From the sequence record MK327932.1: 64,000 nt of DNA; one strand, given 5' to 3'. The notes under the pieces are model-generated. The model worked only from the letters and a program-made list of their open reading frames with translations. It did no database searches and was not told the origin of the DNA. The DNA comes from Escherichia phage vB_EcoM_G2248. Of the stretch, positions 21,891 to 27,009 are shown piece after piece (positions within the stretch are counted from its first letter, which is position 1; each line of letters opens with the position of its first letter). The translations under genes and the position numbers were made by a program.

Positions 21891-22589
21891 CTAACCACGG
21901 GTATAGTGTTCCAGAACAACGGTCAGATGAATATATTCTAATAGATCTTTCCAAAAGTCAACATCTGGTTCTTCCGGCATACCGTTTTTCTTTGCCTCTT
22001 CACGCGCGAGTTTAACACGCTCGTAGAGATCTTTCAATTCTTCCCGCACATTATCAAAGGTTCTTTCTCCTAACTTACACGCTAAGATAGAAGAACGTCG
22101 CGCGAGCGGGAATTGTAGATCACCAGTTTGATAGATTTCAAGTAGCTGATAACCAACACGCAGAGCATGAGAAAGATCTTTCCAGTTACTGAAATACTTT
22201 TCAGATTTGGCTACCTGTTTCTTGAGATAACCAGACAAACCCCACATACCAACATGATAGAATTTATCGCGATGTGTTCGGATGTATTCCCATTCTCTGG
22301 AGGATTCGATCAACATGTTACTAGGCGCGTGCACCATATCAATAGCGCCGATATCACCTTTACATGCCAGATTGATAAACCGTTTTAGACTGAACATATT
22401 AACGTCAATATCGTCTTTGGTGTTCTTGATACCTTGACCGCTAGTGCTTTGGTCATAGTGTTCTTTCATCGATCCTAAGATAATTTCTTTCGCAGTCGGA
22501 ACAAAGATACCACGATAATCTTTATCGGAATTTTCAGTATCAAGGCCGTATAAGTGAGATCCGAAGACCATTTTAACCATTGTATGCAT
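21891..22589 (-). CDS. Pol-beta-superfamily nucleotidyltransferase
   Basis: N-terminal signature FGSHLYGLDTENSDKDYRG (GS-x9-13-D-x-D); RBS GAGGG. Confidence 0.55.
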   Translation of the reverse strand: MHTMVKMVFGSHLYGLDTENSDKDYRGIFVPTAKEIILGSMKEHYDQSTSGQGIKNTKDDIDVNMFSLKRFINLACKGDIGAIDMVHAPSNMLIESSREWEYIRTHRDKFYHVGMWGLSGYLKKQVAKSEKYFSNWKDLSHALRVGYQLLEIYQTGDLQFPLARRSSILACKLGERTFDNVREELKDLYERVKLAREEAKKNGMPEEPDVDFWKDLLEYIHLTVVLEHYTRG

Positions 22590-22632
22590 AATTAAACCCT
22601 CAGTTGATTAAGAGATTGCATCATATCATCAT

Positions 22633-22665
22633 AAAACGAAAAAGCCAACCCTTTTCGGATTGGCT
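22633..22665 (-). terminator. rho-independent terminator downstream of the GrcA-like gene
   Basis: Hairpin AGCCAATCCGAAAAGGGTTGGCT followed by a T-run on the minus strand. Confidence 0.6.
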
Positions 22666-22675
22666 TGATGAAAAA

Positions 22676-23092
22676 TTAGAGAGATTCGGTAAAGGTACGA
22701 GCGATAACATCACGTTGCTGGTCTGGAGTCAGACTATTGAAGCGCACTGCGTAACCAGAAACGCGAATTGTAAGCTGCGGGTACTTCTCAGGATTAGCAA
22801 CAGCATCCAGAAGAAGGTCGCGACTCATCACATTGATATTCGCGTGCTGACCACCTTCGACAACCGGAGCACCATTATCTACAATCACCGGACGGAAGCT
22901 AGTTGTGTGCAGTGCCAGCGAATCGACGTCTTCTTCGGTGATCACATGGTCTTCTGCGAAAGTTTTACTAACAATTACTTTAGCGCCGATCAGTGCTTTC
23001 GGTTCGGATACCAAAATCATAGGCGCGAAGTGTCCACCGATAATAGTACCTTTATGCTCACCTTTCATGATTTGAATTGCTTTAAATTCCAT
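22676..23092 (-). CDS. autonomous glycyl radical cofactor (GrcA/YfiD-like)
   Basis: C-terminal glycyl radical motif RVSGYAVRF in a 138-aa protein; T4 is known to encode a YfiD-like protein; RBS GAGGTGA. Confidence 0.7.
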
Positions 23093-23226
23093 AATTCACC
23101 TCTTATAGATCAGGACGTTCGTCATTAATTTTACCAACCAAAACACCATAGAGTTTATCAGGTTGGATTTTACGATTCTTTTTAATTGTAGCACGAAATC
23201 GACGAGCTACGCTATCTTTATTTTCA

Positions 23227-23718
23227 TTAGTTGATACCTAAGCCAATGAAAATAGGTTGGTCTTCTACATTACCCATCCCAACACTAAGTCGATTCAATT
23301 CTAAAAACTGCAATACGCTGTCAGTAAATCCGCGCATGGTAGTATCTAGGATAAAAATTGTTTTGTCAAGACTACGACCTCGCCATGTGATCGGATTCAG
23401 GAAAGTTCGGATCGACGTACAATCTACATCTGAAATATTTACATTTTCACCACGACCGCGATCTCGGATCGTTTTGGCATGTTCCCGCGTTGTTGAAACG
23501 ATAAAGACACTATAGCCTTTTCGCGTATAATGGTCATATAACTTGATTGTAGCGTCTGTATGCCCTGTCTGACGGCCTAAATTGATTGAGACAATGGAAT
23601 CTAGGTCATCAGCAAAATTGCGTCGCTTACGGCGTTCCATGATGCCATTTACAGCAGATACACACGCAGCATAAATCAAATCTTTACTTTCTAATTCTAA
23701 ATCAATGTCAATATTCAT
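23227..23718 (-). CDS. hypothetical protein
   Basis: Start placed at ATG 23718 behind RBS GGAGAC; the track ORF extends to 23766. Confidence 0.45.
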   Translation of the reverse strand: MNIDIDLELESKDLIYAACVSAVNGIMERRKRRNFADDLDSIVSINLGRQTGHTDATIKLYDHYTRKGYSVFIVSTTREHAKTIRDRGRGENVNISDVDCTSIRTFLNPITWRGRSLDKTIFILDTTMRGFTDSVLQFLELNRLSVGMGNVEDQPIFIGLGIN

Positions 23719-23780
23719 GGTAAAGTCTCCAGTGAACGGGGAGAGATCCTTAGATTGTCTCCCCATTGATGGTTAATATT

Positions 23781-24356
23781 TTATTTTGGATCTGGGAAAT
23801 TCAATAGAGCATATTCTCCATAAAATTTCCTAGCTGCATTATCATAAGCGATTGCAGCTTCGATTTCTGTGTCATATTGTCCAAGAACATGTCTTTGTAG
23901 GTTGACCATTATACTAGCTCTCCATTTCTTACGCAAATCCTTCCTGTTACACTTACTAACACCCTTATACACACTAGAAAACTTTTTAGACTTCTTCTTT
24001 CTATTATGTTGATTTTGCGCGTCGGTTGCCTCCCTAAGATTTGGAGGATTGTTATTAGCAGGATTACCGTCAATATGATCAATTAATCTAACTTGCGTCC
24101 CATGTTCTAGAAACCAAACAACCCTATGCACGAATAGATGAACTCTAGGAAGACCGTCATCTCTACTATGCCAAAATCTAAGATGACCATCTTTATTTGT
24201 TCTGACTTTAACTAAATCGCCGTGTTTATATCTACTCCCTAATGGTCGTCCTTTGATAGCTTTACTATCGACTCTATAATATAAGATACCCTCTATATGA
24301 GCATATCTAAGTTTTATCTCGTTTTGTAGGGATTCATCCCAATATTTAAAAGCCAT
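23781..24356 (-). CDS. HNH homing endonuclease with C-terminal AP2 DNA-binding domain
   Basis: HNH motif LIDHIDGNPANNNPPNLREATDAQNQHN; AP2-like SSVYKGVS...WRASI...YDTEIEAAIAYDNAARKFYG. Confidence 0.75.
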   Translation of the reverse strand: MAFKYWDESLQNEIKLRYAHIEGILYYRVDSKAIKGRPLGSRYKHGDLVKVRTNKDGHLRFWHSRDDGLPRVHLFVHRVVWFLEHGTQVRLIDHIDGNPANNNPPNLREATDAQNQHNRKKKSKKFSSVYKGVSKCNRKDLRKKWRASIMVNLQRHVLGQYDTEIEAAIAYDNAARKFYGEYALLNFPDPK

Positions 24357-24401
24357 TTTATAATCCTCACAAAGCCAGCGATTAAGCTGGCTTGATTTTA
24401 G

Positions 24402-24791
24402 TTATACCGGGTCTGGATATACCTTTTTATCGAGTTCCATATGCGGTCCGTCTTTAAAAGTAACCCAATCAACACCGCAGATAACAGGAACACCCAATTC
24501 TCGACCAGCTTGTTTAAATGCATCCGCGATCATGCGGTAGTATTTCATGTTCCATGTATCCTTATCTTTCGGATACGCTACAACGTCAACCGCGAAACCG
24601 TGAAGATGACGAGATTTCATAGTCTTAGATTTACCTTCCGCAACATATTTCTTTTGCGTTTCTAGACTACGTACACCTTCCGTAATACCAAAATCGACCG
24701 GAGTCAGTTCTAACGCACGATGAACGACTTTTACCAGGTCAGGATGCACACCAACAAGCCGATCTTTGCTTCTTTGAGATAATTTAAACAT
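24402..24791 (-). CDS. peptidase M15 family peptidoglycan endopeptidase (candidate endolysin)
   Basis: Zn-binding motifs SRHLHGFAVDV and DGPHMELD typical of L-alanyl-D-glutamate peptidases; no signal peptide. Confidence 0.65.
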   Translation of the reverse strand: MFKLSQRSKDRLVGVHPDLVKVVHRALELTPVDFGITEGVRSLETQKKYVAEGKSKTMKSRHLHGFAVDVVAYPKDKDTWNMKYYRMIADAFKQAGRELGVPVICGVDWVTFKDGPHMELDKKVYPDPV

Positions 24792-24819
24792 TATTCACCC
24801 CCTTTGTGAGTGATAATAT

Positions 24820-25011
24820 TTAGATTCCGGCGATCCTGCATAGAGTTCTTGTATTAGCACCAATCAGGATCGCATTAACGACAACCATTCCCCAATCAAC
24901 CCACTGATTATTATAAATGCTAAACCCGTTTGCAAGACCAAATACAAGCATTCCGGTACACATACTCAGAGCAATAATCAACATCACGGTAAAACCAAAT
25001 GCAAATTTCAT
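24820..25011 (-). CDS. small membrane protein
   Basis: 63 aa, hydrophobic, ATG start. Confidence 0.4.
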   Translation of the reverse strand: MKFAFGFTVMLIIALSMCTGMLVFGLANGFSIYNNQWVDWGMVVVNAILIGANTRTLCRIAGI

Positions 25012-25012
25012 A

Positions 25013-25228
25013 TTATTTTCCTTTTCTCTGTTTACGTTTATAAAAGTAATACATTACCTCATCACGTCCGGTGATCCAACATGCTAGGGCGGTAAACAGG
25101 TTTACAATTCCCAACACACCTACTGACGCGGCGCTGTCAACAGACATAGGAACAGTAAAGGCCATAGCTAACATAGCAACGCCACAAATGACATTAAGCA
25201 CCATTATAATAAGACCGAAGAAAACCAT
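25013..25228 (-). CDS. small membrane protein
   Basis: Start placed at ATG 25228 with RBS GGAGGA; two hydrophobic helices. Confidence 0.4.
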   Translation of the reverse strand: MVFFGLIIMVLNVICGVAMLAMAFTVPMSVDSAASVGVLGIVNLFTALACWITGRDEVMYYFYKRKQRKGK

Positions 25229-25230
25229 TG

Positions 25231-25422
25231 TCAATCCTCCGACACAAGAAAACCAACAATCACGCCAGTGATAAGACATGATGCGCCGCTAATCAGACAA
25301 CCCGCACCAAGTGATTCCCACCAGATCAGAGAAGCGACAATAACACAGAATCCCCATACTACCGCAATCACAACATAGGCAAGGGTCGCCCAAAACATAT
25401 ATTTGTTCATAATAAATCCCAT
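25231..25422 (-). CDS. small membrane protein
   Basis: Hydrophobic 63-aa ORF. Confidence 0.4.
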   Translation of the reverse strand: MGFIMNKYMFWATLAYVVIAVVWGFCVIVASLIWWESLGAGCLISGASCLITGVIVGFLVSED

Positions 25423-25595
25423 TCACCAAACAAATAAGAAAAAAGCCATATCAACAGAAACGAGGCAATTGATCCGGCAAGCAAAATGATATTAGAGAAT
25501 CCGCCGTCTATCCAGGCGACAAAACAGAATACGCCAGTATAGAAGCATAAACCCATTACAAAGCATACTATAAGCAACCATAGACAAAACGCCAT
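25407..25595 (-). CDS. small membrane protein
   Basis: RBS GGAGGG before ATG 25595; hydrophobic. Confidence 0.45.
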   Translation of the reverse strand: MAFCLWLLIVCFVMGLCFYTGVFCFVAWIDGGFSNIILLAGSIASFLLIWLFSYLFGEWDLL

Positions 25596-25656
25596 AGAAA
25601 GCCCTCCATCGAGATAAATTAGTGCGGGTAGGGGACTGCACTACCCGCTTTGTTAA

Positions 25657-25815
25657 TCATCGCAGAGCGTGTTCTAGAACGATTCCACACCAACCGCTAA
25701 CCACACCAAAACACACAGCAACAAGCAGATTCATTCGGTCTTTTGGAATCATCGCAAACAGAACAACACCCACACAGAAAGCCATCACCATTGAAGTTAA
25801 CATTTGTTCAACCAT
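25657..25815 (-). CDS. small membrane protein (52 aa, below track cutoff)
   Basis: Own translation MVEQMLTSMVMAFCVGVVLF...; RBS AGGTG before ATG 25815. Confidence 0.35.
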   Translation of the reverse strand: MVEQMLTSMVMAFCVGVVLFAMIPKDRMNLLVAVCFGVVSGWCGIVLEHALR

Positions 25816-25817
25816 TA

Positions 25818-26156
25818 TCACACCTTTAAAGTCATAGACGCATAAACATTAATGCCAGGCCAGTTAGGATCGCAATTATACTCAACATCCCACAAATAAA
25901 GCGGTTTAGATGTATCAGCCAAGTTTTTAAAATCTTCTACCCACATTTCAAGGCTATATGATGGATAAACTAGGCTATCATATCCGCCGTAACGTTGGCC
26001 TACTGGTCGGTCAGTAAAAACTACATCAAGATCCGGTAATTCTTTTTCAAGGATAACCGCCAGCGCATAAATCAGACTGTCTTCCTTGTTACGCTGCCGA
26101 AGGACCGTTGTCAGTTGGTTTTTCTGGTTCACTAGCAAGCACCTCCACATTTTCAC
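25818..26156 (-). CDS. hypothetical protein (start uncertain)
   Basis: Track ORF overlaps the upstream ORF by about 68 nt, so the true start may be internal. Confidence 0.35.
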   Translation of the reverse strand: MKMWRCLLVNQKNQLTTVLRQRNKEDSLIYALAVILEKELPDLDVVFTDRPVGQRYGGYDSLVYPSYSLEMWVEDFKNLADTSKPLYLWDVEYNCDPNWPGINVYASMTLKV

Positions 26157-26409
26157 AGAATGAAATTTTCACAGACACAATTTTACCATAAGTGAAGAAT
26201 GAATATACATTATCGAGATATTCAACGTCACCTACAATCACATCAAACTGAGGATCAGCCACCGCCGCAACATATTCTACCAGTTCATCAAGAGAATGCA
26301 ACTTAATTTCATCAATTCGGCTGTATTTGGTTGCATCTTTGATTTTAAAACCACGTTCTTTCAGCTTATCAATTAGAATTTCACGCGGAGTTTCAAACAG
26401 TTTGCTCAT
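26089..26409 (-). CDS. hypothetical protein
   Basis: ATG 26409 behind conserved RBS GAGGATTATATTATG. Confidence 0.5.
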   Translation of the reverse strand: MSKLFETPREILIDKLKERGFKIKDATKYSRIDEIKLHSLDELVEYVAAVADPQFDVIVGDVEYLDNVYSFFTYGKIVSVKISFCENVEVLASEPEKPTDNGPSAA

Positions 26410-26430
26410 AATATAATCCTCACATTAAAT

Positions 26431-26628
26431 CTAAAATTTGTTAACGACGAATTGCATAATTAGACTAATCACAAACATTGCAAACCAAGTATAAATGCAA
26501 CAGATAAAAGCTACATACAATTCAATCTGGTCAGAGAATACACCGGGTAAAAGCATTAGCAAAATAACAACAGTAAAAACGCTAGCGATACCCGCAACAA
26601 AACCAATATCATTTTTACTAATCGTCAT
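26431..26628 (-). CDS. small membrane protein
   Basis: Hydrophobic; ATG 26628 overlaps the upstream stop. Confidence 0.4.
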   Translation of the reverse strand: MTISKNDIGFVAGIASVFTVVILLMLLPGVFSDQIELYVAFICCIYTWFAMFVISLIMQFVVNKF

Positions 26629-26825
26629 CAAGTCACCGTTTTGTAAAGAAACACAATAAAATCCCAGACAAAAAAGACAGTGAAAATAATCATCGTCAAG
26701 ACAATAAACACTGTCAGATTTTCATCGTTAGTTAATTCATGACCGTCCATCCATATAATCACCAGATAAAACATCGAAATCAAGGAGGCGAATACCAAAT
26801 TATAAAACTCTTCCTTTAATGACAT
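26628..26825 (-). CDS. small membrane protein
   Basis: Hydrophobic 65-aa ORF. Confidence 0.4.
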   Translation of the reverse strand: MSLKEEFYNLVFASLISMFYLVIIWMDGHELTNDENLTVFIVLTMIIFTVFFVWDFIVFLYKTVT

Positions 26826-26826
26826 A

Positions 26827-27009
26827 CTACACCTCGTCGCGGCTTAAGTCAACAGCAATTGCATACAGCATAATGAATATGCTAGCCGATCCGAGAATCA
26901 ATACACCCTCACATTTTGAAACTCGCTCATCAAAATGTAACATTATCCATCCGAGGATGTTAAAGGCGCAGACCGCGCCTATGTTCGCTAACCAATTAAT
27001 CTTTTTCAT
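26827..27009 (-). CDS. small membrane protein
   Basis: Hydrophobic 60-aa ORF. Confidence 0.4.
   Translation of the reverse strand: MKKINWLANIGAVCAFNILGWIMLHFDERVSKCEGVLILGSASIFIMLYAIAVDLSRDEV

Follow-up and report, generated by a model that had tools for sequence, protein, structure and literature searches.

The genome of Escherichia phage vB_EcoM_G2248, a Krischvirus (RB49/JSE/Phi1-like) of which a window of 64,000 nucleotides was analysed here (MK327932.1), carries an intact, previously catalogued free-standing homing endonuclease gene (HEG) of the HNH-AP2 type, known from RB49/JSE-like coliphages. The gene sits within the last codons of an M15 endolysin ORF, and forms part of a cassette of ~690 bp that also supplies the endolysin with a new 3' end. 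The intact domains of the product and the pattern of sequence variation around the cassette make it quite probable that the enzyme acts, or acted until very recently, as a free-standing homing endonuclease and that the cassette is spreading among Krischvirus by intronless homing.

The gene and the domains of its product

The HEG, recognised in a first-pass annotation as an HNH motif followed by an AP2-type DNA-binding domain, is exactly one minus-strand ORF (23781..24356, stop included; 191 aa), a separate ORF with its own start codon and its own ribosome-binding site, a GAGGA Shine-Dalgarno sequence at 24364-24368, 7 nt from the ATG. Counterparts in phages JSE, KMB43, TB34, JK32, Whisky, G5211 and others, 99.5-100% identical to this protein, are encoded at the corresponding locus, flanked by the M15 endolysin and vs.8 and with unchanged orientation, and represent the same gene with no substantive difference; identity is 100% to EpJSE_00105 of JSE (ACL78054.1) and to the copies in KMB43, TB34 and Whisky. 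The labels attached to these copies vary, from 'homing endonuclease' for that of KMB43 (WQN06428.1) to 'pathogenesis-related transcriptional factor and ERF protein' in TB34 and JK32 and 'hypothetical' in several records. All 13 GenBank copies are at least 99% identical, with the next homologue at 49-52%; paralogues at other loci are 44-52% identical, and the nearest homologues (52%) adjoin gp47/46 and dsbA, not an endolysin. No paralogue was found elsewhere in the window, either by tblastn or with a profile HMM of 28 homologues applied to all six-frame ORFs.

The nuclease domain (residues 75-116; 24009..24134, minus strand) is of the HNH_3 family (His-Me finger, 'HNN' type). The Pfam profile PF13392 matches above its curated threshold (40.2 bits against a cut-off of 24.8; E 2.6e-10), and the PHROG family phrog_99, 'HNH endonuclease', matches the protein with an E value of 1.4e-43. 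Residues D93, H94, N106 and N115 align with D74, H75, N87 and N96 of I-HmuI, the intron-encoded HNH nicking homing endonuclease of Bacillus phage SPO1, and among 28 homologues H94, N106 and N115 are invariant and D93 is conserved in at least 90%; D93 and H94 are the predicted general base and metal ligand of the domain. None of these residues is degenerate, and the sign that would have suggested a decayed pseudogene is not seen. The AF2 model of the protein (pLDDT 93.2) contains the beta-beta-alpha-metal fold, with strands at 92-94 and 107-109, a helix at 112-116 and a local pLDDT of 95-98, and Foldseek aligns the model with the structure of I-HmuI (PDB 1u3e; E 8.9e-4) over 105 columns at an rmsd of 3.5 A. 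This likeness takes in the catalytic core and the preceding beta-sheet region, although the sequences are only weakly similar (E 0.005; 105 columns at 28% identity). Unlike I-HmuI, the HEG is free-standing, and the C-terminal region of I-HmuI is reportedly a helix-turn-helix region, not an AP2 domain. By analogy with I-HmuI, strand-specific nicking is the likely chemistry of the HEG enzyme, because it would be monomeric with one active site.

The AP2 DNA-binding domain occupies residues 129-180 (23817..23972, minus strand). The Pfam AP2 profile (PF00847) aligns over 52 of its 54 positions there, and its score of 25.2 bits (E 2.1e-5) lies below the cut-off of 33.3; the same gene is marked AP2 '(weak)' in metagenome loci, and PF00847 is present in the precomputed Pfam listing of a 99%-identical cluster representative (P0001). 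Searches with phmmer against solved plant AP2 domains matched WRI1 (E 1.4e-9), TEM1 (4.8e-5) and ERF1 (8e-4). The C-terminal domain of the model has the AP2 fold, with strands at 133-135, 145-151 and 154-161 and a helix at 164-182; it superposes on the AP2 domains of TEM1 (7et4/7et5) and ERF1 with an rmsd of 1.0-1.9 A over 63 columns at 40-41% identity, and reaches a TMt of 0.82 against AtERF1 (1gcc). Both domains, in the order originally proposed, are thereby borne out, the AP2 domain by phmmer and fold in spite of its sub-threshold Pfam score.

The cassette and its junctions with the endolysin gene

The host gene of the insertion, and likely the target gene of the HEG, is the M15 endolysin gene that lies upstream on the same strand (24402..24791, minus; M15_4, L-alanyl-D-glutamate peptidase type, from Pfam Peptidase_M15_4 and phrog_465); homologues of vs.8, vs.6 and nrdC.11 lie downstream. 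The first-pass annotation had placed the HEG between the endolysin and early ORFs, and the gene does adjoin the endolysin, but the insertion falls within the final codons of the endolysin ORF. At the left junction, the original last four codons and stop of the resident endolysin (C CCA GAT CCA AAA TAA on the gene strand; 23781..23796, minus) now encode the C-terminal PDPK and stop of the HEG, and the same 16 nt close the endolysin ORF in 8 of the 8 HEG-less genomes aligned (with 2 mismatches in Phi1). The mobile cassette itself, absent or replaced in HEG-less genomes, covers 23797..24487 (minus) and consists of the body of the HEG, its leader and a replacement 3' end for the endolysin gene; its GC content is 36.9% compared with a window mean of 40.4%.

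The replacement 3' end (24402..24487, minus; the last ~27 codons and stop, with the protein tail VICGVDWVTFKDGPHMELDKKVYPDPV) is marked by a drop in identity, as it shares 63-65% of its nucleotides with the HEG-less allele and the remainder of the endolysin gene shares 97-98%. It is linked to the HEG throughout the GenBank records, being present in 13 of 13 that have the HEG and in none of the ~50 that lack it. The endolysin is 129 aa in every HEG+ and HEG-less genome, including the chimeric form in the window, and the junctions are identical across all 10 HEG+ genomes aligned. Both reading frames survive the insertion, since the cassette copy finishes the endolysin and the resident codons finish the HEG. 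A search of Rfam over 22000-26000 yielded no group I intron and no meaningful score, only a single chance-level snoRNA match; with a Shine-Dalgarno sequence of its own and an adjoining endolysin that is complete without splicing, the gene is free-standing and lacks any intron context, as first described.

The leader of the HEG (24357..24401, minus) contains a hairpin directly 3' of the endolysin stop, followed by the Shine-Dalgarno sequence. The hairpin (24372-24393; stem AAGCCAGC/GCTGGCTT; an 86-nt stretch has an MFE of -21.4 kcal/mol, z -1.9) is labelled a putative terminator in the G5211 and TB34 records. A terminator scan called it on the opposite strand only, where a T-run follows, and found no U-run after it on the gene strand, for which it is at most a candidate terminator. 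No T4-type late promoter (TATAAATA) was found on the gene strand within 4 kb upstream, and none closer than 28590; in the search for a promoter belonging to the HEG, sigma-70-like matches numbered 10, against 8.1 expected from shuffled controls. The HEG is probably expressed by transcription that starts at upstream promoters and reads through the hairpin, as for T4 mobE.

Distribution and diversity among related phages

Among GenBank relatives, 13 carry the HEG at this locus and ~50 do not, the latter appearing in the alignment with a gap of ~625 bp; the original RB49 record is among those without this copy. The flanking gene order is identical in the HEG-less relatives, and the element behaves as a simple indel within the genus, which leaves no place for the suggestion of the first-pass annotation that it might explain local differences in gene order from T4. 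We take the order in T4 to be e ... vs.8 ... regB-vs, with which the endolysin, vs.8, vs.6 ... regB, vs.1 and vs of the window would be broadly collinear.

Within the group of phages that carry it, the cassette is far more uniform than its surroundings. Across 10 HEG+ genomes there are 10 segregating sites in the 691 nt of the cassette (1.4%) and 157 in 1993 nt of flanks (7.9%; Fisher p = 1.5e-11), with pi at 0.002-0.008 in the cassette and 0.016-0.03 in the flanks. Judged by these sequences, a cassette diversity about 5-fold below that of the flanks indicates a recent spread, and not an old neutral polymorphism. The flanks, moreover, do not separate the two groups of phages: flank divergence between HEG+ and HEG-less genomes equals pi within the groups, genomes of both kinds interleave in flank clustering on both sides of the cassette, and polymorphisms common to both are met at a distance of 38 bp on its right side and ~90 bp on its left. 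Within 40-100 bp of the cassette, polymorphisms in the flanks cease to follow its presence. The two groups of genomes show fixed differences in 24402-24487 only; those that the MAFFT alignment placed at 24161-24178 are an artefact caused by 23 nt of the HEG-less genomes being misplaced inside the HEG, and this stretch was recomputed on ungapped sequence.

The endolysin tail is itself hypervariable among HEG-less genomes, where pi over 89 nt is 0.089 as against 0.02-0.03 in the flanks, at least five allele classes can be distinguished, and serine codons alternate between AGT and TCG. By its diversity the locus behaves as the recombination hotspot that it had been suspected to be. Five tail alleles are told apart by type (RB49/kvi, Phi1, KFS-EC, P0030, and P0031 or HEG+). 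A second polymorphic HEG slot is found 1.1 kb downstream of the HEG.

Metagenomes extend this distribution. The exact HEG protein occurs in 84 metagenome-index blocks, and the order endolysin-HEG-vs.8 is kept in the 10 loci listed (of 23 contigs). One metagenomic contig of a sister lineage, L031, has 30 consecutive sister-type sites from 24831 to 24621, is donor-type from 24600 across the HEG to ~23250, and then returns to sister-type; a donor-type tract of ~1.35 kb, centred on the HEG, thus lies in a diverged backbone in this one contig. A tail allele like the one presumed to be immune (86.5% nt identity) is native to phages of the sister lineage, and if this sister-type tail is uncleavable, the backbone of L031 would not have been entered by homing at that site. 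A search of 50,697 phage records for the donor of the cassette, in which the cassette was compared by distant blastn and the endolysin tail by tblastn, recovered nothing closer than the HEG-less allele. With the full endolysin as query, related tails were found in HEG-less metagenomic relatives at 82-86.5% nt identity; the donor itself was not found.

The comparison of this locus across related phages, which had been proposed as the way to check the first-pass annotation, has yielded presence and absence with sharp boundaries, a diverged endolysin tract linked to the HEG, and the conversion tract of L031. Several features typical of a free-standing HEG are found here: a polymorphism at one locus with precise junctions, an element that appears younger than its flanks and is uncoupled from them, and a co-converted flank.

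Probable homing, its alternatives and known relatives

In the homing process that we propose, the enzyme, during a mixed infection, would bind DNA through its AP2 domain and its N-terminal beta-sheet domain and would nick or cut HEG-less alleles at the endolysin 3' end or close to it. Phage recombination would then repair the break from the HEG+ genome, so that the HEG is copied in and the neighbouring endolysin tail is co-converted with it. The HEG+ genome would be immune, either because its endolysin tail, in which alone HEG+ and HEG-less genomes differ consistently, has lost the match to the recognition site or because that site is interrupted by the insertion.

A more specific version of this process can be offered only tentatively, and is perhaps rather doubtful. 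The recognition site may fall within the terminal ~90 nt of the M15 endolysin gene, in which case homing would overwrite the C-terminus of the protein and the hypervariability of the tail would record repeated rounds of invasion, target-site escape and loss. A G-rich segment, GAATGGGGTGGGGATTGG, is proposed as the candidate recognition element. Between HEG+ and HEG-less phages 13 of the 27 C-terminal residues are changed, including WGGDW to CGVDW beside the DGPH motif, which presumably carries the zinc-ligand His in M15 peptidases. The swapped tail might alter the behaviour of the endolysin, and the tail of a lysis gene would, if this version is true, be a battleground.

T4-like phages recombine very often, and the shuffled flanks and the mosaic of L031 could have resulted from ordinary homologous recombination after a single acquisition. 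General recombination of this kind is what one would expect if the HEG were an inactive or decaying passenger that entered once, does not cut, and is reshuffled by the background recombination of its hosts; its presence in only 13 of ~63 GenBank relatives, and the frameshift in the copy of pEJ01 (a 1-nt deletion, from decay or sequencing error), fit such a history as well. We nevertheless regard this as unlikely, as the catalytic residues and both folds are intact, the ORF is full length in 12 of 13 GenBank records, and the identical protein is widespread in metagenomes. Substitutions in the ORF are, moreover, nearly all synonymous, with 2 amino-acid changes among 14 pairwise nucleotide differences when each of the 9 other HEG+ copies is set against that of the window, and the roughly 5-fold deficit in cassette diversity points to a recent spread rather than to an old neutral polymorphism.

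The shortage of amino-acid changes is also compatible with purifying selection on a domesticated gene that mainly benefits the phage, for instance by excluding or cutting competing HEG-less Krischviruses or satellites or by serving as an AP2-based DNA-binding regulator. The co-option of HEG-derived genes in other phages and the reuse of AP2 domains as regulators are discussed in PMC10448857, and T4 HEGs are known to cause marker exclusion as a side effect (PMC2988022). Such a role is, to our judgement, more improbable still. The HEG is dispensable, as ~80% of close relatives are without it and have an unchanged gene order; an intact nuclease site makes a pure regulator unlikely; the exclusion of competitors would be a consequence of homing and not an alternative mechanism; and the architecture and polymorphism pattern are exactly those of a selfish HEG.

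Presence and absence alone do not give the direction of change, but the idea that the HEG was ancestral to the genus and was repeatedly lost from the HEG-less lineages, with no mobile insertion, is so improbable that it was rejected: the last 16 nt of the endolysin tail in HEG-less genomes recur as the end of the HEG, which is the mark of an insertion that duplicated the end of the gene, diversity is far lower in the cassette than in its flanks and its GC content is under the window mean, the HEG+ genomes are polyphyletic on both flanks, and many identical precise deletions would be needed, each also swapping the endolysin tail.

HNH-AP2 putative homing endonucleases were reportedly described in 2004 by Magnani, Sjolander and Hake in cyanobacteria, Tetrahymena and phages RB49 and Felix 01. 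For T4-related phages, Table 5 of Petrov et al. (2010; PMC2993671) gives HNH-AP2 HEGs as a class apart from the mob-like HEGs, with 1 in RB49, 2 in JSE, 3 in RB43 and 6 in RB16. Members of this class resemble the present HEG in having an N-terminal HNN-type HNH_3 domain and a C-terminal AP2 domain, and in being free-standing, multi-copy and variably placed in phage genomes. The precedent for promoterless, nicking, co-converting free-standing HNH HEGs is MobE of T4 (PMC2790892; reviewed in PMC2988022). Like MobE and the mob/seg HEGs of T-even phages, the HEG forms a free-standing cassette within a conserved gene cluster, has no detected promoter of its own and lies beside a hairpin, and it also shares with the T4 mob/seg genes a presumed target in the neighbouring gene, adjacent co-conversion and a patchy occurrence among close relatives (PMC2790892, PMC2988022). 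It differs from them in possessing an AP2 DNA-binding domain, in having an activity that is predicted only, and in its position inside the last codons of a neighbouring ORF, with a duplicate that restores that ORF, whereas mob/seg genes lie in intergenic spacer. A biochemically characterised HNH-AP2 HEG of a T4-related phage was not found in the literature.

This is a well-documented but ordinary case, and little changes for the field, as the HNH-AP2 HEGs of RB49/JSE-type phages have been catalogued since 2004-2010 and the exact protein was already in GenBank. The gene would be better annotated as an HNH-AP2 homing endonuclease, 'hypothetical protein' and 'pathogenesis-related transcriptional factor and ERF protein' being poor labels. 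The pair JSE and Phi1 is a clean natural system in which the function of an HNH-AP2 enzyme could first be tested, with a candidate target region of ~90 bp. The endolysins of HEG+ Krischvirus are chimeric, their last 27 residues moving with the HEG, which is relevant to the comparison and engineering of these endolysins and to the use of the locus for typing.

An HNH nuclease joined to an AP2 domain

The window belongs to a Krischvirus (RB49/JSE/Phi1-like, Straboviridae), and the 3-kb stretch spanning the HNH-AP2 homing endonuclease gene (HEG) is 94.5-98% identical to 13 HEG-carrying relatives. The gene is a single minus-strand ORF of 191 aa (23781..24356), exactly as delimited in the first-pass annotation, which had read it as an HNH motif followed by an AP2-type domain. 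In Pfam, HNH_3 covers residues 75-116 (40.2 bits against a cut-off of 24.8, E 2.6e-10) and AP2 covers residues 129-180 at 25.2 bits (E 2.1e-5), below its curated cut-off of 33.3. The protein also matches phrog_99 'HNH endonuclease' in PHROGs (E 1.4e-43) and, in a PDB sequence search, plant AP2 domains (WRI1, E 1.4e-9; TEM1, 4.8e-5; ERF1, 8e-4) as well as the SPO1 homing endonuclease I-HmuI (E 0.005). An AlphaFold2 model computed from a 28-homologue alignment has a mean pLDDT of 93.2, and Foldseek against the PDB superimposes it on the TEM1 AP2 domain (rmsd 1.0-1.9 Å, 63 columns, 41% identity), on AtERF1 (TMt 0.82) and on I-HmuI (105 columns, rmsd 3.5 Å, E 8.9e-4).

The catalytic residues are not degenerate, as they might have been in a decayed pseudogene. 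In the pairwise alignment, with numbers counted off the printed alignment, D74/H75/N87/N96 of I-HmuI correspond to D93/H94/N106/N115; across the 28 homologues, H94, N106 and N115 never vary and conservation of D93 is at least 90%. In I-HmuI, H75 is reportedly the general base and D74 and N96 the metal ligands. The database matches, the aligned catalytic residues and the modelled fold therefore confirm the HNH-AP2 assignment. One copy, in phage vB_ESM-pEJ01 (OP114734.1, 157556-158274), has a locus of 719 nt, not 720, and a protein match in two pieces; it is a frameshift by a 1-nt deletion, representing early decay or a sequencing error.

Position within the end of the endolysin gene

All the HEG's neighbours lie on the minus strand: the M15_4 endolysin gene (24402..24791) upstream and, downstream, homologues of vs.8 (23227..23766), vs.6 (a GrcA-like glycyl-radical protein, 22676..23092) and nrdC.11 (21891..22589). 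The HEG is present in 13 of the 63 GenBank phage records matching the locus, and about 50 lack some 625 bp; JSE carries it, and the original RB49 and Phi1 records do not. The flanking gene order is identical in HEG-less relatives, which argues against the suggestion that the HEG accounts for gene-order differences from T4.

An alignment of ten HEG+ genomes (the window included) and eight HEG-less genomes places the left junction directly after TTATTTTGGATCTGGG (23781-23796), 16 nt that form the last four endolysin codons and stop in HEG-less genomes (...YPDPK*) and the end of the HEG in HEG+ genomes (...NFPDPK*). The right boundary lies at about 24487. From the endolysin stop at 24402 to this point the two groups are 63-65% identical, as against 97-98% over the remaining endolysin gene. 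Endolysin length is constant at 129 aa across the genomes, whereas the last 27 residues read VICGVDWVTFKDGPHMELDKKVYPDPV in HEG+ genomes and VEWGGDW(T/V)SFKDG(P/V)H(L/F)QLPHSKYPD(P/Q)K in HEG-less ones, and in GenBank the former tail is linked absolutely to the HEG (13/13 HEG+ versus 0/~50 HEG-less). The mobile cassette (23797-24487) sits within the endolysin ORF end and brings a replacement end, leaving both ORFs intact. Describing the element as lying between genes is therefore too simple.

An Rfam scan of 22000-26000 detected no family and therefore no group I intron, and the HEG has its own Shine-Dalgarno sequence (GAGGA, 24364-24368, 7 nt before the ATG), bearing out its description as free-standing. 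Between that ribosome-binding site and the stop codon of the endolysin lies a hairpin (24372-24393), which two GenBank records label a putative terminator; on the gene strand, however, it is not followed by a U-run. No T4-type late promoter lies on the HEG strand closer than 28590. Most probably, then, the HEG is a cassette without a promoter of its own that relies on read-through for expression, as was shown for T4 mobE (PMC2790892).

Other features of the region may be recorded here. A second hairpin (23738-23764; GGGGAGA, 13 nt, TCTCCCC) is found in every relative, just 3' of the endolysin stop or, in HEG+ genomes, of the HEG stop, which makes it part of the backbone preceding vs.8. At 23765 a window-specific G-to-A change (all relatives have G) introduces an ATG further upstream, which extends the mechanically called vs.8-homologue ORF to 179 aa where relatives annotate 161-163 aa; translation probably begins at the ATG with its first base (minus strand) at 23718 (MNIDIDLE...). 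Directly upstream of the endolysin, 24820-27009 (minus strand) holds about eight very small ORFs (54-88 aa), hydrophobic and membrane-protein-like, annotated in W115 as putative membrane proteins; they may be lysis- or superinfection-related. Within this stretch, 25600-25800 is highly variable among relatives (pi 0.10 in HEG+ genomes versus ~0.02-0.03 nearby), JK32 has ~265 bp extra, and ORF calls vary between records.

Evidence for recent spread

The 13 HEG copies share 99.4-100% protein identity, the next best homologue anywhere being 49-52% identical. Among the ten aligned HEG+ genomes the cassette holds 10 segregating sites in 691 nt against 157 in 1993 nt of flank (Fisher p = 1.5e-11; pi 0.002-0.008 versus 0.016-0.03), with two amino-acid changes only among the ten HEG copies. 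Flank divergence between HEG+ and HEG-less genomes equals the diversity inside each group, and the two interleave when clustered on either flank. Both groups share a polymorphism at 24525, 38 bp right of the cassette, and a 6-bp indel at 23699-23704, ~90 bp to its left. An identical HEG protein occurs in 84 indexed blocks of a metagenome and assembly collection, lying between endolysin and vs.8 in the 10 loci listed (of 23 contigs).

The most telling case for mobility is L031, a metagenomic contig whose backbone is that of a sister lineage; over its full length, the endolysin of this lineage shares ~87% identity with the window's. L031 is sister-type at 30 consecutive lineage-distinguishing sites (24831-24621), window-type from 24600 across the entire HEG to ~23250, and sister-type again beyond, 62 such sites lying at 22937-22748. 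With the HEG at its centre, this donor-type tract of ~1.35 kb is the footprint expected of break repair with co-conversion; the comparison of relatives proposed at first pass thus yielded both presence/absence (13 versus ~50) and a conversion tract. T4-like phages recombine very freely, so the shuffled flanks and the L031 mosaic could also arise by ordinary recombination without endonuclease action. The tail native to the sister lineage is itself similar to the presumed immune allele, and the HEG may therefore have reached that backbone by some route other than homing at that site.

Probable homing, the endolysin tail and related elements

I-HmuI is an HNH enzyme that nicks one strand. T4 MobE, likewise HNH, also nicks one strand (PMC2790892), and by analogy the HEG product would act in mixed infections as a monomeric single-site enzyme, probably nicking or cutting the DNA of HEG-less phages within or close to the 3' end of the endolysin gene. 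Phage recombination would then repair the break from the HEG+ genome, bringing in the HEG and the adjacent endolysin tail together; intronless homing that co-converts neighbouring genes is a standard part of the biology of T-even phages (PMC2988022). No sequence other than the tail consistently separates HEG+ from HEG-less genomes, which makes it the best candidate for both recognition site and immunity determinant, although the insertion itself might instead confer immunity by splitting the recognition site. HEG-less genomes have the G-rich segment GAATGGGGTGGGGATTGG where HEG+ genomes have ATCTGCGGTGTTGATTGG, and this segment could hypothetically be the AP2 target, GC-rich DNA being the reported preference of this class of AP2 domains (cited in PMC10448857).

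No donor of the cassette was found among the phage records and metagenomic relatives searched. Its GC content is 36.9% (window mean 40.4%; 6th percentile among same-size windows). Its tail allele class occurs natively without any HEG in metagenomic relatives, namely the P0031 lineage (VVCGVDWVTFKDGPHIELDKKVYPDPR, 86.5% nucleotide identity to the cassette tail) and the P0030 contigs (82%); the best explanation of the tail is thus that it came from the endolysin of a related phage and travelled along with the HEG, not that it diverged in situ. Among HEG-less genomes the 89-nt tail is hypervariable (pi 0.089, three alleles), with multi-nucleotide codon replacements such as ACT AGT versus GTA TCG, which fits the recombination hotspot suggested at first pass. 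Across Krischvirus-like phages (HEG-less loci L002, L011-L017 and L022-L030), the equivalents of 24402-24490 fall into at least five allele classes differing by clustered multi-nucleotide changes, the remaining gene being nearly identical within the RB49 group.

Nearby, another slot is polymorphic for a second HEG; in the window its empty site is the 86-bp nrdC.11/vs.6 spacer (22590-22675). A NUMOD4/HNH_3 ORF of 175-176 aa fills it in JSE, Whisky and phiS, and a different NUMOD4+HNH_3 ORF of 197 aa in FL04, JK32 and several metagenomic contigs (loci for comparison, L001:2476-3006, L010:3399-3992 and L033:4225-4818). The adjoining vs.6 3' end, where identity of the window to JSE or Whisky falls to ~82%, is another diverged gene end linked to a HEG. 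T4 mobD likewise adjoins nrdC.11 (PMC2988022, Table 1). In the genomes sampled the second HEG is confined to those also carrying the HNH-AP2 HEG (5/10 versus 0/8 HEG-less).

The element is of an already known kind. The HNH-AP2 class is established and was reportedly described by Magnani et al. (2004). For that description they are cited in PMC10448857 and PMC2248197, and Petrov et al. (2010) counted one HNH-AP2 HEG in RB49, two in JSE, three in RB43 and six in RB16 (PMC2993671, Table 5). JSE EpJSE_00105 is the same gene as the window's HEG, and the label homing endonuclease is already attached to it in several records; our literature search found no biochemically characterised HNH-AP2 HEG from a T4-related phage. 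The first-pass observation is confirmed and its interpretation largely right. The new detail is modest: an insertion inside an ORF with an ORF-restoring, HEG-linked endolysin tail, and population and mosaic evidence for recent spread of the HEG.
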